Below are positions 29,842 through 55,202 of a DNA stretch of 64,000 nt, piece by piece. Under the pieces are notes generated by a model. The model saw nothing but the letters and a program-made list of their open reading frames with translations, was not told the origin of the DNA and searched no databases. This DNA comes from Eledone cirrhosa (taxonomy: Eukaryota): assembly GCA_964016885.1 (NCBI GenBank), contig OZ024763.1:23188001-23252000 (forward strand), written 5' to 3'. The translations under genes and the position numbers were made by a program. Position 1 is the first letter of the stretch. Every line of letters begins with the position of its first letter.

Positions 29842-29879
29842 CGAGCTGAAGATCCGCTAAGGTGAAACAATTGTTCTCG
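29842..29879 (+). ncRNA. Minimal type I hammerhead ribozyme in the PLE 3' region (pLTR)
   Basis: cgag-CTGAAGA-tccgctaaggt-GAAA-caattg-TT-ctcg: 4-bp stem I, weak stem II, palindromic stem III. Confidence 0.75.
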
Positions 29880-30025
29880 GTATGGTGAACTAACTGTTGT
29901 GTTACCACTTCTACCTAACTCGTCCCATGGACTGAGTGCTCTATCACTATATATATATGTATATATATATATATTTCATTTCTGAATTTGTCTTATTGGC
30001 AACATGACCCTCCCAAAGCATAACA

Positions 30026-30090: not shown

Positions 30091-30993
30091 TCTAAGAACG
30101 TAGACTTTATATGTGGCCAATGCTCAGGTGCAATAGGTAGCAAGTGTCCACAGGATACTAGCCACTTCTATTGCCCAGATGGTTCTATAGAAATAGTAGA
30201 CACTTTCTGTTACCTGGGTGACGAAATCAGCAGTGATGAAGAGTGTTCTGAAAGTACAGTAGCCAGAGTCAGAACGGGATGGAAAAGTTCAGAGAGCTTA
30301 TACCGCTGTTGGCCACAAAAGGTTTCTCTCTAAAAATGAAAGGCAGATTGTATGATGCTTGTATACGAACAGCAATGCTACATGGCAGTGAGACATGGGC
30401 ATTGTGTGCAGAGGACCTGCGTAGACTGGAAAGGAACGAAGCATGCATGCTCCGTTGGATGTGTAATAGTAATATACGTGAACGGCAAAGCATAAATGAA
30501 CTAAGTGAGAAATTAGGAATAAGAGGGATCAGATGCTGTTTACTCGAGAGAAGACTACGTTGGTATGGCCACGTGATGCGCATGAAAGACGACAGCTGTA
30601 TAAAAAAGTGCAGGGCGATCAAAATTGATGGTAGTTACGGAGTAGGTAGACCCAGAAAAACCTTGGACGACACCCTCTCTCTATAAAGTTGGTACCACAA
30701 CATCCAGTCCAAATAAATGAGATAATGAGATCGAGATCGTGTAGGTGTCACGAGAAAAAAACACAGTCCACACCGTAATGTGGCCGTGTAGGTCACACGG
30801 TAAAAAGTTCCCAGTTCCACACTGTAAATGTGTTGGTGTTAGGAAGGGCATCCAGCCATAGAAAACCTGCCAGATAGTCCTATATGAGCGAGACACGGTC
30901 ACCCGACCAACCTTGCCTCAAGTGGGACAACTCCCGTCTAACCCATGCTAGTGTGGAAAGTGGACGTTAAATGAAGATGATGATGATAATGAT
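30091..30993 (+). mobile_element. 5'-truncated RTE-clade LINE (RT C-terminus and 3' UTR, internally deleted; subfamily A)
   Basis: FCYLG..ARVRTGW/KFRELIPLL..LYDACIRTAMLHGSETW..RLRWYGHVMRM..GRPRKT with a frameshift; (GAT)n tail. Confidence 0.9.
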
Positions 30994-31039
30994 GGTGTAT
31001 ATATATATGTATATATATATGTATATATATATGTATATA

Positions 31040-31090
<51 letters not shown>

Positions 31091-31127
31091 CTATATATGT
31101 ATATATATGTATATATATATATATATA

Positions 31128-31809
31128 TGTATAAAGAATCAAAAAGAACAGAAAGATGCAGTAAAAGAGGTTTATTCGGTTCTAACGTACGTTTCAATAG
31201 ACATCAATTTGCCTAGATCTCGCTGCATCTATAATATTATATAGTTAGTAGAACATTCGACATCCAATGCACAATTGATTCCATATCATCAGATCTCTGA
31301 TGATATGGAATCAATTGTGCATTGGATGTCGAATGTTCTACTAACTATATAATTGTTTCTACTTTTGGCACATGGCCAGCAATTACCCAGTACATTACTG
31401 GTACTTTATTTTATCGACCCCGTAAGGATGAAAGGCAAAGTCAACCTCGGCGGGATTTGAACTCAGATCGTAAAGGGACGTAACTCTGCTGGAAAGCATG
31501 GCGTCCGACCCTCTACCGACACTGCCAATCCACCGCCCGTTCTACTAACTATATAATATTATAGATGCAGCGAGATCTAGGCAAATTGATGTCTATTGAA
31601 ACGTACGTTAGAACCGAATAAACCTCTTTTACTGCATCTTTCTGTTCTTTTTGATTCTTTATACAGGCCCCGGAGTATAGCTAAACTGGAATATACACCT
31701 ATTTTCTGCATTTCGTTGAGCACCACTATGTTCTAAGCTGACCTTCCCCTACACGGTACATAACACAGTGTCCTAGAAAACCTTAATGCACTCGTGCATA
31801 ACCAATTAT
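31128..31809. mobile_element. Fold-back HHR-containing element (probable PLE pLTR derivative), 166-bp inverted arms
   Basis: 31128-31293 is the reverse complement of 31296-31665 once the SINE is removed. Right arm reads tct-CTGATGA(31297)...GAAA(31598)-cgtacg-TT-aga. Confidence 0.85.
31354..31538 (-). mobile_element. Full-length OK-like SINE with 19-bp target-site duplication
   Basis: TSD GTTCTACTAACTATATAAT at 31335-31353 and 31539-31557. Confidence 0.93.
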
Positions 31810-31831
31810 ATATATATATATATATATATAC

Positions 31832-31906
<75 letters not shown>

Positions 31907-33838: not shown

Positions 33839-34718
33839 ATAATTGGTGTTGGATACTTAAAGCGTCCGTATGCGGTAGGCCGTATGAGCACTCGATGCTC
33901 TCATAGAGCAGAGTATGATACCACAGAAAAAGAGAATCAGTGTTGCGACGAATGGAATTTATTGGACATATTACAATCGTTTCTCTGGCGACCAGCTCGA
34001 GGCACGATCGATGTGGTGCGACCAGCTCGAGGCACGATCGATGTGGTGCGACCAGCTCGAGGCACGATCGATGTGGTGCGACCAGCTCGAGGCACGATCG
34101 ATGTGGTGCGACCAGCTCGAGGCACGATCGATGTGGTGCGACCAGCTCGAGGCACGATCGATGTGGTGCGACCAGCTCGGGGCACGATCGATGTGGTGCG
34201 ACCAGCTCGAGGCACGATCGATGTGGTGCGACCAGCTCGAGGCACGATCGATGTGGTGCGACCAGCTCGAGGCACGATCGATGTGGTGCGACCAGCTCGG
34301 GGCACGATCGATGTGGTGCGACCAGCTCGAGGCACGATCGATGTGGTGCGACCAGCTCGGGGCACGATCGATGTGGTGCGACCAGCTCGAGGCACGATCG
34401 ATGTGGTGCGACCAGCTCGGGGCACGATCGATGTGGTGCGACCAGCTCGGGGCACGATCGATGTGGTGCGACCAGCTCGGGGCACGATCGATGTGGTGCG
34501 ACCAGCTCGGGGCACGATCGATGTGGTGCGACCAGCTCGGGGCACGATCGATGTGGTGCGACCAGCTCGAGGCACGATCGATGTGCTGTGACCAGCTCGA
34601 GGCACGATCAATGTGGTGATCACCACATCGACCGTGCCTCGAGCTGGTCGCCACAGACACGATTGTAATATATCCAATAAATTCCATTCGTCGCAACACT
34701 GATTCTCTTTTTTTCTGT

Positions 34719-38592: not shown

Positions 38593-38791
38593 GTTTTAAT
38601 ATAGAAGAGCTTCTACAGGACTAGAACTGTTTCATTCGTGAGAAATCATCACGAATCTGATTCCTGGTGATTTCTCACGAATGAAACAGTTCTAGTCCTG
38701 TAGAAACTCTTCTATATTAAAACTTTTATACTCTGCTATGTATTGAGTTCCTTACTTACTGAGGTTACCTGCGATTGAACCCGGAATAACT
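38593..38791. mobile_element. Fold-back HHR element, 65-bp arms centred on 38658
   Basis: ttc-CTGGTGA-tttctcacgaat-GAAA-cag ttctagtc ctg-TA-gaa. The opposite arm reads GTGATGA, so the consensus core is CTGATGA. Flanked by (TA)n. Confidence 0.85.
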
Positions 38792-45374: not shown

Positions 45375-45461
45375 GACGTATCTGAGGATCTTGCGATTTC
45401 AGTCGATCATTGCATCGATCGTGCCTGGAGCTGGTCGCCAGAGAAACGGTTGTAATATGTC
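45375..45461 (+). ncRNA. Complete type I hammerhead ribozyme with extended stem II
   Basis: gacgtat-CTGAGGA-tct...aga-GAAA-cggttg-TA-atatgtc; 7-bp stem I, GUA cleavage triplet. Lies within element 45304-45510. Confidence 0.85.
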
Positions 45462-45583
45462 TAATAAATTTTATTCATCGCACCACTGATTCTCCATTTC
45501 TTATGTGATACATATATATATATATATATAACCAAGACTGGAATTGAACCATCAGCACAGTTGAGATATGTCAGACATCAATT

Positions 45584-45649
45584 TATTTTATCTGATGAGG
45601 ACGTACTGAGGAAACAGCACAGTACCTCTGAAATATATATAATAAAATA
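45584..45649 (+). ncRNA. Complete type I hammerhead ribozyme
   Basis: tattttat-CTGATGA-ggacgtactg..cagtacctct-GAAA-tatata-TA-ataaaata; 8-bp stem I, palindromic stem III. Confidence 0.85.
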
Positions 45650-45709
45650 TATTTGATCACATGAATGTCTATATTTATTAATATTTTTAATTAATATATA
45701 TATATATAT

Positions 45710-46170
45710 ACACCTCTCCAAGACAATGTCACTGGACCAAGATCTTTGGCGCTACACAGTAATAGAGAAGACCCGCCTTACCTAAGTACAAAGTGAAACC
45801 TAGTCAGTAGGCACCTCTAACAAAATACACCCCCGTCCCACTACCCCCACCCCATCCACACCACCCCTTTCAATGTAATGTTATGTTGGTGCCACAACAT
45901 CCAGCCCGAAACAAATGAGGTCGTGTAGGTGTCACGACAAAAAAACACACAGTCCACGCTGTAATGTGGCCGTGTAGGTAACACGGTAAAAACCTCCCAG
46001 TTCCACACTGTAAATGTGGTTGGTGATAGGAAGGGCATCCAGCCGTAGAAAGCCCGCCAGGCAGTCCTATGCAAGCAAGACAACCACTCTTGTCTCAAGT
46101 GGGAAAACTCCCGTCCAAACCCATGCAAGCGTGGAAAATGGACGTTAAACGATGATGATGATGATGATGA
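45710..46170 (+). mobile_element. RTE LINE 3' end with long UTR (subfamily A)
   Basis: Colinear with 47510-47998; (GAT)n tail. Confidence 0.85.
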
Positions 46171-46307
46171 TCGTTTAACGTCCATTTTCCACGCTTGCAT
46201 ATATATATATATATATATATGCATATATATATATATATATATTGTTATACTTGGGGAGGGTCATATTTGTGTAATATTGCCAGAATTAATAACAGAACCT
46301 CGCAAAA

Positions 46308-46342
<35 letters not shown>

Positions 46343-46475
46343 AGAAAGTGAGGTTTTTTTTACAAAATGAAAAATAACTGAGGTGTCCTACACGAGTGAA
46401 AGTATAAAGAAAAAAAGATGAAATCGAAAATGCAACTGGAGTCTTATTTTTAAAAAAATATATATATTTATTTGG

Positions 46476-47311
46476 TTCCTTTACCGGTTTCGCAGTTTTT
46501 CTGCTTTTCAAAAGTAGAGTTGAGATGGAAGGTCTGTGGTTTTTCTCACATCTGGTTGGTCTCTAAATGTTACTTGTTTTATATTGAAAAAAGTGGCTCG
46601 AAATGCCAGGTTTTTAGAGAAGAAATTGGTTGGTCAATGATTATAATAAATTTTGCGCCAGTTCGCGTTACAAAGTTACAAAGTAAAAAAAAGCCTTCAT
46701 GAGCCCCTTTTTTTAAGTAAAAAGAAATTCGAACACACACACACAACCACACAAATAAACATACATATCTTTACTTTCTTTATTTTAATAGAAAATCTGA
46801 ATTCTGACACCCCAGCGAACTAACCATATTCACTGAACCAGAACAATTCTCCCATCCCATTTCTCTTGACCATTATCTTTTGCTTGTCATAAAATTCTCT
46901 AAAAAGGCTACAGAATAGATTTCCAAATAAGGGCGCGGAAATTTAATGAAAACTTGTTCACGTGACAGCCATAATTTCATTTATAACCAATCAAATTACG
47001 TTTATTAAAAAAAAGCCTTCGTGAGCCCCTTTTTTTTAAGTAAAAAGAAATTCAAACACTCATATATGAAAAAACAACCTGTGCCCCCCCCACCTCCTGT
47101 TTGAAGAACTTTGTAACGCGAACTGGCGCGAAATTTATTATAATTATTGACCAACCAATCAAATTACTTCTCTAAAAACCTGGCATTTCGAGCCACTTTT
47201 TTCCATATAAAACAAGTAACATTCAGAGACCAAACAGATGTGAGAAAAACCAGACCCTCCATCTCAACTCTACTTTTGAAAAGCAGAAGAACTGCGAAAC
47301 CGGTAAAGGAA
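46476..47311. mobile_element. MITE / fold-back DNA element with ~200-bp inverted repeats
   Basis: 46476-46677 is an imperfect reverse complement of 47107-47311. An internal ~50-bp direct repeat sits at 46686 and 47008. Confidence 0.85.
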
Positions 47312-52312: not shown

Positions 52313-52718
52313 CACATATATATACAAACATATATATATATATTATATATACACATATATATACAAACCTTAACTTTACATTATTTTTCTCTTCGTTAAT
52401 TTTCAAATTCTTTTAATTTATACATTATCTTCCAACGGTTTTTCAACCTCTCTATGTAAAACAATATATTTTTCTCAGTTATAGAAGCTATCTCTCTCTC
52501 TGTATCACCCATCTCTCCTCCTATCTCATCCTTCCTCATTATACCCCCGCCCCGCCACTTTTTACTCTCATCTCCTCTTTTCATCCGTTCCACCCCACCC
52601 CACCCCCCTCAACATTTTTTCCCCCCAATATCACACATCAATCTAAAACTACTTTTCATATGTTGATTTAAAACTGCACTATCCACAAGTGTTTTTTAAC
52701 CTTCATATCATGTCTTCC

Positions 52719-52789
52719 TATTTTATCTGATGAAAACACAAATGTTATTGCATGATGATATTTGTTTTTGAAATGCGCATAATAAAATA
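52719..52789 (+). ncRNA. Complete type I hammerhead ribozyme
   Basis: tattttat-CTGATGA-aaacacaaatgttatt gcat gatgatatttgttttt-GAAA-tgcgca-TA-ataaaata. Confidence 0.87.
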
Positions 52790-53259
52790 CATGGAACTCT
52801 TTTAACCATCTTTTGATCTTATATATTACACACATATATATGTGTATATATAATATATATATATGTATTTATATGTGTGTGTGTATATATATATATATGC
52901 AATGGTCTAGAAAAGAAAGAGAGATCGGGAGAGTGAGAGCAAGAGAGAGCCTCATAATTATGCGAGAAAAAGGCTGACATTATCATAATTATCAACAAAG
53001 AAATAGTTGTGTGAACAGGCCAAGGAACTGGACATCTTGTTCCCACAGAGTCAAGGATTTTTATTAGGGTCATATATATAAATCCCTATTGTCAATTCTC
53101 CTATATCATCATCATCATGTTTATTGTGTGTGTGTATATATATATATATATTTATACAATAAGAAGTTACATATATATATGTGTGTGGGTATATATCATT
53201 TGCGTTTCAGCCGAAGAGCTGAGACCATGCTGGGGCACTGCCACTGATACATATATATT

Positions 53260-54840: not shown

Positions 54841-54992
54841 TAGAAAATATTTGGAAATATATTTAATTCAAAATGTACTCACACACACACATATATATAT
54901 ATACACTATATATATATATATTAAAAAAAATATATATATAGTATATATAGCATATATATATATATTTATATAGCATATATATATATATTTAT

Positions 54993-55202
54993 TACGAAGG
55001 AAATGTGGTAAGGAACCAGGTGGACCATAACGCACCAAAGTACTCAATACTTGAGGTAGTAGAGTGGGTAATAGGAACCAGTAAGACCCCGACAGCTGAG
55101 CTCAAGCCGTTTCGACGGCTAATTCTGGACGGCTAATTCTGAGTCCAGAATTAGCCGTCGAAACGGCTTGAGCTCAGCTGTCGGGGTCTTACTGGTTCCT
55201 AT
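54993..55202. mobile_element. Fold-back HHR-derived element, perfect 60-bp arms
   Basis: 55071-55130 and 55143-55202; stem II gacggctaattct..agaattagccgtc-GAAA-cggc ttgagctca gctg-TC. The CTGANGA box is absent. Confidence 0.85.

Follow-up and report, generated by a model that had tools for sequence, protein, structure and literature searches.

Architecture of the palindromic unit

A unit at approximately 31128–31806 of the window, i.e., of the whole 64-kb stretch of DNA that was analysed, is bounded by two (TA)n tracts and consists of a palindrome, a dispersed repeat inserted in one of its arms, and a one-sided extension. Its features are as follows.

30998–31133, no strand: (TA)n microsatellite called by TRF, left flank and likely insertion target
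31128–31293, minus strand: left arm, 166 bp, an inverted 5'-truncated copy without SINE that ends at the short 3' end of the family
31293–31296, plus strand: head-to-head junction, placed from the upstream sequence of the family and read loose ends at 31293
31294–31295: spacer TC between the arms, 2 nt
31296–31353 and 31539–31665, plus strand: right arm, in parts of 58 bp and 127 bp that overlap by the 19-bp duplication
31335–31353, plus strand: SINE target-site duplication, copy 1, 19 bp, identical to copy 2
31354–31538, minus strand: SINE-like dispersed repeat in the right-arm stem II, 185 nt, strand assigned from A- and B-box-like motifs
31539–31557, plus strand: SINE target-site duplication, copy 2, 19 bp, identical to copy 1
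31666–31806, plus strand: 3' extension (tail) on one arm only, its first 30 nt being family sequence as judged from contig loose ends
31807–31906, no strand: (TA)n microsatellite called by TRF, right flank

As the original prediction had it, the two arms are identical once the SINE is removed (166 bp, 2-nt spacer): both parts of the right arm match the left arm with 0 mismatches, corresponding to an arm divergence of 0% with a 95% upper bound of 1.8%. The palindrome is real, but the limits first given for the element require revision, since the unit ends near 31806 rather than at 31809, and the outer 6 bp of the left arm (31128–31133) are less certain because they lie within the (TA)n tract called by TRF. 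The tail has a length of up to 141 nt, and the sequence 31666–31806 is found on the right side only. Read against the natural upstream sequence of the family (see below), the sense copy has its first base at 31293, with the hammerhead core beginning 4 nt further on; this single base is common to both arms, which differ by 3 nt at the junction. A BLAST search of arm and tail against the 64-kb window returned no second copy.

The insert in the right arm has nine further copies of at least 150 nt in the window (78–95% identical) and, being a short dispersed repeat with a target-site duplication, resembles a tRNA-derived SINE, of a type that suggests a cephalopod-like genome. The A-box pattern is matched and the B-box pattern is not, with a B-box-like motif visible by eye, and ARAGORN found no tRNA in the insert. 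Since the arms are identical apart from the SINE and its 19-bp duplication, both of which lie in the right arm, the inversion preceded the SINE, and the proposed order of events, fold-back first and SINE later, is upheld. The same asymmetry bears on whether the palindrome is an assembly or library fold-back artefact, for which the 100% identity of the arms might speak; such an origin is hardly credible, as SINE and exact duplication are confined to one arm, the flanks outside the arms are not alike, and similar junctions are present in two other sequencing runs.

A hammerhead motif with a long predicted stem II

The arms carry the elements of a hammerhead ribozyme motif, listed here for the sense copy.

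31297–31303, plus strand: hammerhead core CUGAUGA, with a mirror copy at 31292–31286 on the minus strand
31304–31597, plus strand: stem II, 90 nt after subtraction of the SINE and one duplication
31598–31609, plus strand: GAAA core, palindromic stem III ACGUACGU and predicted cleavage triplet GUU
31610–31616, plus strand: 3' strand of stem I, 3 bp at the locus

GAAA occupies 31598–31601, ACGTACGT 31601–31608 and GTT 31607–31609, and an AAUAAA follows directly after the 3' strand of stem I (31617–31622). The order of cores, stem III and GUU is that of a type I hammerhead, with CUGANGA, GAAA and a UH triplet all present. The claimed hammerhead core and the long stem II of about 90 nt both exist in the family, and the SINE-free stem II is predicted to fold into 32 pairs at −24.5 kcal/mol. 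Of 1000 shuffles, 2 were as stable (z −3.2), for a region picked after the fact, and the 127-nt motif gave a z of −2.4 (1 of 200 shuffles); a relaxed type I descriptor was satisfied by 7 of 20,000 arm shuffles. At the base of stem II, the canonical G10.1–C11.1 pair is absent and a U.U lies beside the core instead, followed by a basal helix predicted to have 12 bp and a single bulge. Stem III is predicted to be unstable as a monomer (+2.4 kcal/mol) and to self-pair as a dimer (−11.6 kcal/mol). A comparison with Rfam yielded no family at gathering score and no hammerhead model among 39 weak hits.

The ribozyme is predicted to be inactive at this locus, where neither copy is intact. The left-arm copy has 1 bp of stem I and fails the relaxed descriptor, and the right-arm copy combines a stem I of 3 bp with the SINE, which lies inside stem II at 31354–31538 as had been described. 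In the predicted minimum-energy fold of a plus-strand transcript of the locus, moreover, every core base is paired to the opposite arm.

The family in public sequencing runs

A run search matched 24 runs, four of which (X1, X2, X6 and X23) were compared against positions 31120–31312. The best two runs contain 0.47 and 0.45 of the sampled words and are therefore not the window's own source. No RNA run was among the matches listed, which carries no implication for expression. Matches were obtained in 1608 contigs of X1, 53 contigs of X2 and 92 raw reads of X23, and in none of X6, a run with a small share of the words, i.e., a multi-copy family is visible in three of the four runs compared. Contig depth does not equal copy number, but the X2 contig depths of 1031 and 728, compared with 4–20 for junction contigs, indicate many copies. 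Pattern scans of viral, metagenome and prokaryote genome collections gave 0 matches each.

Most copies are non-palindromic and continue upstream: 30 X23 reads, as well as 21 X1 contigs, depart from the arm at 31293 into a shared upstream sequence, known for 30 letters, and no X23 depth remains beyond 31294. In these non-inverted copies, stem I is predicted to comprise UCU/AGA, an 8-nt bulge and CGGU/ACCG. The suggestion that non-inverted copies with a longer stem I should exist is thereby supported, with 3+4 predicted bp compared with 3 bp at the locus.

At the opposite end, depth persists across the TA flank (31120–31126 relative to the next bin: 20,465/92,261 in X1, 1,197/3,257 in X2 and 4/~6 in X23), and other copies therefore share the short 3' end. 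Contigs that run on into the tail, with loose ends before 31128, number 41 in X1 and 2 in X2; compared by eye with the reverse complement of 31666–31695, these loose ends match in 29 of 30 letters (X2) and 27 of 30 letters (X1), so at least 30 nt of the tail belong to the family. In four X2 contigs, a 5'-truncated copy abuts TA repeats (at 31233, 31237, 31243 and 31263). Copies of the family thus vary in their 5' truncation, and they have a short 3' end located on (TA)n, to which a 3' tail may be added. X23 read ends at 31137, 31206 and 31209 were not taken for biological ends but attributed to RAD-library cuts at AATT sites, which are present at 31206 in the window and at 31137 once the common allele at 31140 is counted.

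These observations argue strongly against a hairpin-type DNA transposon (MITE or foldback element) with the arms as terminal inverted repeats and TA as target. Perfect arms and TA at both ends fit such an element; however, the axis is crossed by 0 of about 30 X23 reads, copies differ in their junction positions, and there are single 5'-truncated arms as well as a tail on one side. We regard this alternative as largely refuted and very improbable.

Head-to-head junctions

Junctions of the kind seen at the locus recur in the family. In seven X1 contigs, an antisense arm ending at 31169–31242 is joined to a sense start at 31293 or 31295 with 3–29 letters between, and one X2 contig, carrying 8 differences and 2 gaps, crosses the axis. 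All of these eight other junctions have an arm that begins at the core or slightly upstream of it; by comparison with the upstream sequence, the sense arm begins approximately 2–11 nt before the core, within the roughly 14 nt upstream of the core in which junction starts are visible given short contigs and the limits of the reference. Among the joints listed there is none with both arms starting inside the motif, compared with about 34 expected under uniform starts, and we take these missing starts among the listed joints as a lead.

Neither a depth step nor a junction is found at the cleavage site (31183/31184), and the idea that the axis is the cleavage site was rejected on these grounds. 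A cap-derived G at the junctions was likewise dropped, being clear in two of seven and absent or explained by the other arm in the remainder. At 31129, 31170, 31253 and 31276, both arms share bases that differ from nearly all X1, X2 and X23 copies; this is consistent with both arms having been made from one template, although the four bases are possibly fixed in the window's own species.

Probable origin as a Penelope-like element insertion

We conclude that the unit is probably a dead-on-arrival 3' end of a Penelope-like element (PLE), comprising pseudo-LTR (pLTR) and tail, placed head-to-head with an inverted copy in (TA)n and later interrupted by a SINE, and that the type I hammerhead motif of the family, its stem II predicted at 90 nt, would depend on a second copy or on the help of a protein to cut. 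PLE membership rests on architecture. For endonuclease-positive (EN+) PLEs, published features include an inverted 5'-truncated copy next to the element, a tail on one side, (TA)n as target and a hammerhead in the pLTR (PMC8557442, PMC3846280), palindromes at head-to-head junctions (PMC3846280), and paired hammerheads on opposite strands (PMC4209133). Correspondingly, the family shows an inverted 5'-truncated copy adjoining the 5' end (at the locus, in seven X1 contigs and in one X2 contig), a one-sided 3' tail, and variable 5' truncation into (TA)n; both 3' ends, short and tailed, occur in other copies. The fold-back is the head-to-head inverted copy known for PLEs and not a new structure (PMC8557442, PMC3846280); neither this parent class nor the (TA)n target or the one-sided tail was named in the original prediction. 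No reverse transcriptase (RT) or GIY-YIG open reading frame (ORF) linked to the family was found in the 30 upstream letters or among the 13 of 69 listed window ORFs compared with Pfam. With the Hydra clade, agreement is confined to the hammerhead style and the (TA)n target.

A plausible course of insertion can be proposed by analogy with a PLE protein that, according to PMC11167929, nicks AT-rich DNA on both strands in vitro, primes at two internal RNA sites bounding the tail, uses uncleaved RNA, and is required for hammerhead cleavage. The PLE enzyme would nick (TA)n DNA, and cDNA would be primed at a short and at a long 3' start, short-end priming giving the left arm and long-end priming the right arm. 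Synthesis would pass the uncleaved ribozyme and halt just past the core, at the 5' edge of stem I. The second arm might then be made from the same molecule, by template switch or snap-back, or two cDNAs might be joined over one shared base. A depth step at the cleavage site is not to be anticipated on this model, because uncleaved RNA is the expected template (PMC11167929).

The non-autonomous alternative is a retrozyme-like derivative of a PLE pseudo-LTR, ORF-less, mobilised in trans and possibly via circular RNA, of which the locus would be a truncated insertion. It accords with the lack of any ORF found, with an upstream sequence seen for 30 letters only, and with animal retrozymes, whose type I hammerheads have a palindromic stem III and are proposed to be pLTR-derived (10.64898/2026.07.22.740005; PMC7229834). 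Against this, no tandem unit is present in the window, a search of the window for the upstream motif, allowing up to 2 mismatches, found none, the inversions, the tail and the (TA)n junctions suit direct PLE-type integration, and there is no depth step at the cleavage site. Consequently, we consider a retrozyme-like family improbable, and retain a PLE insertion as the preferred origin.

Conservation of the motif and covariation in stem II

Among X1, X2 and X23, 22 of 165 sites are variable (at least 3%), none of which belongs to the 18 sites of core and stem III; taken by itself, this core invariance is not significant (P = 0.065). At this threshold the copies keep CTGATGA and GAAA, the loss of which the original prediction had named as contrary to its reading. 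At position 17, X1 has U, whereas A makes up 86% of X2 depth and occurs in 34 of 43 X23 reads, so that the predicted cleavage triplet is GUA instead of GUU in most X2 and X23 copies.

In stem II, the sole two-sided compensatory pair is 31276:31206, which is A–U in the window, G–C in X1 and mostly G–U in X2. Pairing is retained at 31280:31201 and 31253:31226, and at 31254:31225 it is retained in X2 and lost in X1. As regards the related expectation that stem II can pair across copies, four out of five majority states retain a confident pair, one pair is broken in X1, and there are pair-breaking minor alleles at 31204, 31206, 31215 and 31253 (that at 31206 accounts for 17% of X2 depth and 13 of 42 X23 reads). 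Furthermore, an X1 allele of 40% at 31177 alters the last distal stem I pair. The variant table lists no insertion or deletion, and in divergent X1 loose ends the apical stretch is swapped, by eye, for one of equal length. This pattern of sequence variation modestly backs the predicted stem II fold, without proving selection.

The same data bear on the proposal that the locus is a PLE end in which the long-stem motif is a dead vestige or a protein-binding hairpin, its conservation reflecting the youth of the family and not selection for cleavage. This proposal is compatible with the preferred explanation as regards origin, and we entertain it tentatively, with some doubt. The borderline core invariance (P = 0.065), the several pair-breaking alleles and the unstable stem III monomer (+2.4 kcal/mol) are in its favor, as are reports that PLE minimal hammerheads cleave poorly in vitro (PMC4209133) and that one needs the protein of the element (PMC11167929). 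It is less easily reconciled with variation that spares all 18 core and stem III sites while affecting 22 others, with the restriction of position 17 to U or A, or with the predicted self-pairing of the stem III dimer (−11.6 kcal/mol).

Two further readings of the region were considered. An intron inside stem II (TACTAAC, 31339–31345) was dropped, the last base of this motif being changed in 80% of X2 depth. A run of 19 open codons (31293–31349) with a stop at 31350–31352, too short for protein searches, might be an ORF end that passes through the hammerhead; one X1 subfamily retains the stop by eye, and four of four majority differences between X1 and X2 within these codons change the residue.

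Comparison with known systems

The architecture of the insertion is ordinary and already known for PLEs. The published EN+ PLE insertion units (Craig et al. 2021, PMC8557442; Arkhipova et al. 2013, PMC3846280) resemble the locus in the head-to-head inverted copy, the junction palindrome, the extension at one end, the variable 5' truncation, the (TA)n target and the hammerhead near the 3' end; the locus differs by its near-perfect symmetry, with a 3-nt arm difference at the junction. Tails of EN+ PLEs are usually 30–40 nt, compared with up to 141 nt here, of which 30 nt are confirmed as family sequence. Insertion in (TA)n with variable 5' truncation is described for Neptune, Hydra and Naiad PLEs (PMC8557442). 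A GAGCAC motif in the tail (31717–31724) recurs, as judged by eye, close to the ends of several consensus sequences of the Hydra clade, a weak, after-the-fact lead as to clade. A short-motif search of the Naiad, Chlamys and Hydra consensus files gave no match, in files whose line breaks may hide motifs.

With the type I hammerheads in the pLTRs of PLEs (Cervera and De la Pena 2014, PMC4209133; File S2 of PMC8557442), the motif shares the CUGAUGA and GAAA cores, a short palindromic stem III, and U or A as cleavage base, and it differs by the 8-nt bulge in stem I. Many Hydra-clade rows of File S2 have U on both sides of stem II, as is the case here. The U10.1–U11.1 combination is a known natural hammerhead variant that is partly tolerated (PMC3088659; PMC7229834), and axolotl HHR_Amex2 likewise has U–U at the base of helix II (PMC7229834). 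Animal non-LTR retrozymes (PMC7229834; 10.64898/2026.07.22.740005) are alike in the type I hammerhead, the dimer-suited palindromic stem III and the multi-copy state; however, no tandem units are seen here, and the insertions are truncated, inverted, and located on (TA)n.

What appears to be new is the predicted length of stem II. At 90 nt and 32 predicted pairs, it exceeds the approximately 11–25 nt of the Hydra rows and the maximum of approximately 53 nt (PLE-X1_sMoe) in the PLE hammerhead table (PMC8557442). The literature search found no PLE hammerhead with a stem II this long, although the supplementary figures of PMC4209133 and the supplement of 10.64898/2026.07.22.740005 may list long variants. 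Published searches for PLE hammerheads used core spacers of 7–17 nt, with half-cores noted at 35–50 nt (PMC8557442), so a conserved 90-nt helix II would be missed, and hammerhead counts for PLE clades are perhaps too low.

Further hammerhead fragments and what the family may reveal

Three further motifs in the window, at 29846, 45592 and 52727, satisfy the relaxed descriptor; their stem II lengths are 11, 31 and 36 nt and their stem I lengths 4, 8 and 8 bp, respectively. Each has an 8-nt palindromic stem III and lies approximately 40–100 nt before a TA-rich tract; extended similarity to the palindrome unit was found in none.

29846–29880, plus strand: compact type I hammerhead in the style of the Hydra clade, with CUGAAGA, 11-nt stem II and 4-bp stem I
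45531–45694, core at 45592, plus strand: 164-bp hammerhead fragment flanked on both sides by (TA)n, with stem I of 8 bp, stem II of 31 nt and stem III AUAUAUAU
approximately 52340–52820, core at 52727, plus strand: hammerhead fragment near TA-rich tracts, with 36-nt hairpin stem II and stem III AUGCGCAU

From these three further fragments it follows that probable PLE ends are common in the window and that a long helix II is recurrent. The compact motif, which lies approximately 70 nt before (TA)n at 29949 and whose 3' region is 76% like 46198–46345, is likely another PLE end. The cleavage site of the 45592 motif is overlapped by AAUAAA, and the 8-bp stem I is identical in the 45592 and 52727 motifs.

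A more far-reaching idea, speculative and in our view unlikely, is that the PLEs of this genome harbor a hidden class of active hammerheads in which helix II can lengthen freely, spanning 31, 36 and 90 nt in three fragments of the window that are unrelated to one another, so that some "hammerhead-less" PLE families would be descriptor misses. As part of this idea, the 5' edge of stem I would be a defined RNA start or RT stop: an RNA starting there would lack distal stem I and stay an uncut template, a read-through copy with full stem I would cut, and the folded motif would guide a template switch, giving rise to inversions. At stake are the way in which inverted copies arise in PLEs and the role of the hammerhead, for which the family offers a countable genomic test: in the visible junctions, one arm starts at the core or slightly upstream of it, and no junction lies at the cleavage site.

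Other repeats in the window

A second palindrome, at 54990–55202, lies in a TA-rich tract; it has perfect 60-bp arms (at 55071–55130 and 55143–55202), a short central duplication and approximately 80 extra nt on one side, giving a similar short-end-plus-tail appearance, and it contains no match to the CUGANGA descriptor. Smaller perfect inverted repeats are found at 38611–38705 and 46123–46200, and long inverted repeats at 46476–46622 and 47167–47311, approximately 550 nt apart, possibly belong to an element with terminal inverted repeats.

To the left of the palindrome unit, a multi-copy repeat (30300–30997) ends in (ATG)n-like repeats and resembles the 3' end of an RTE LINE; its ORFs gave no Pfam match. 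At 33927–34712, 80-bp inverted repeats surround a 21-copy tandem array of a 30-bp unit (33988–34618), with related sequence at 45405–45530. A 55-bp satellite of approximately 503 copies with 94% matches occupies positions 1–27486.
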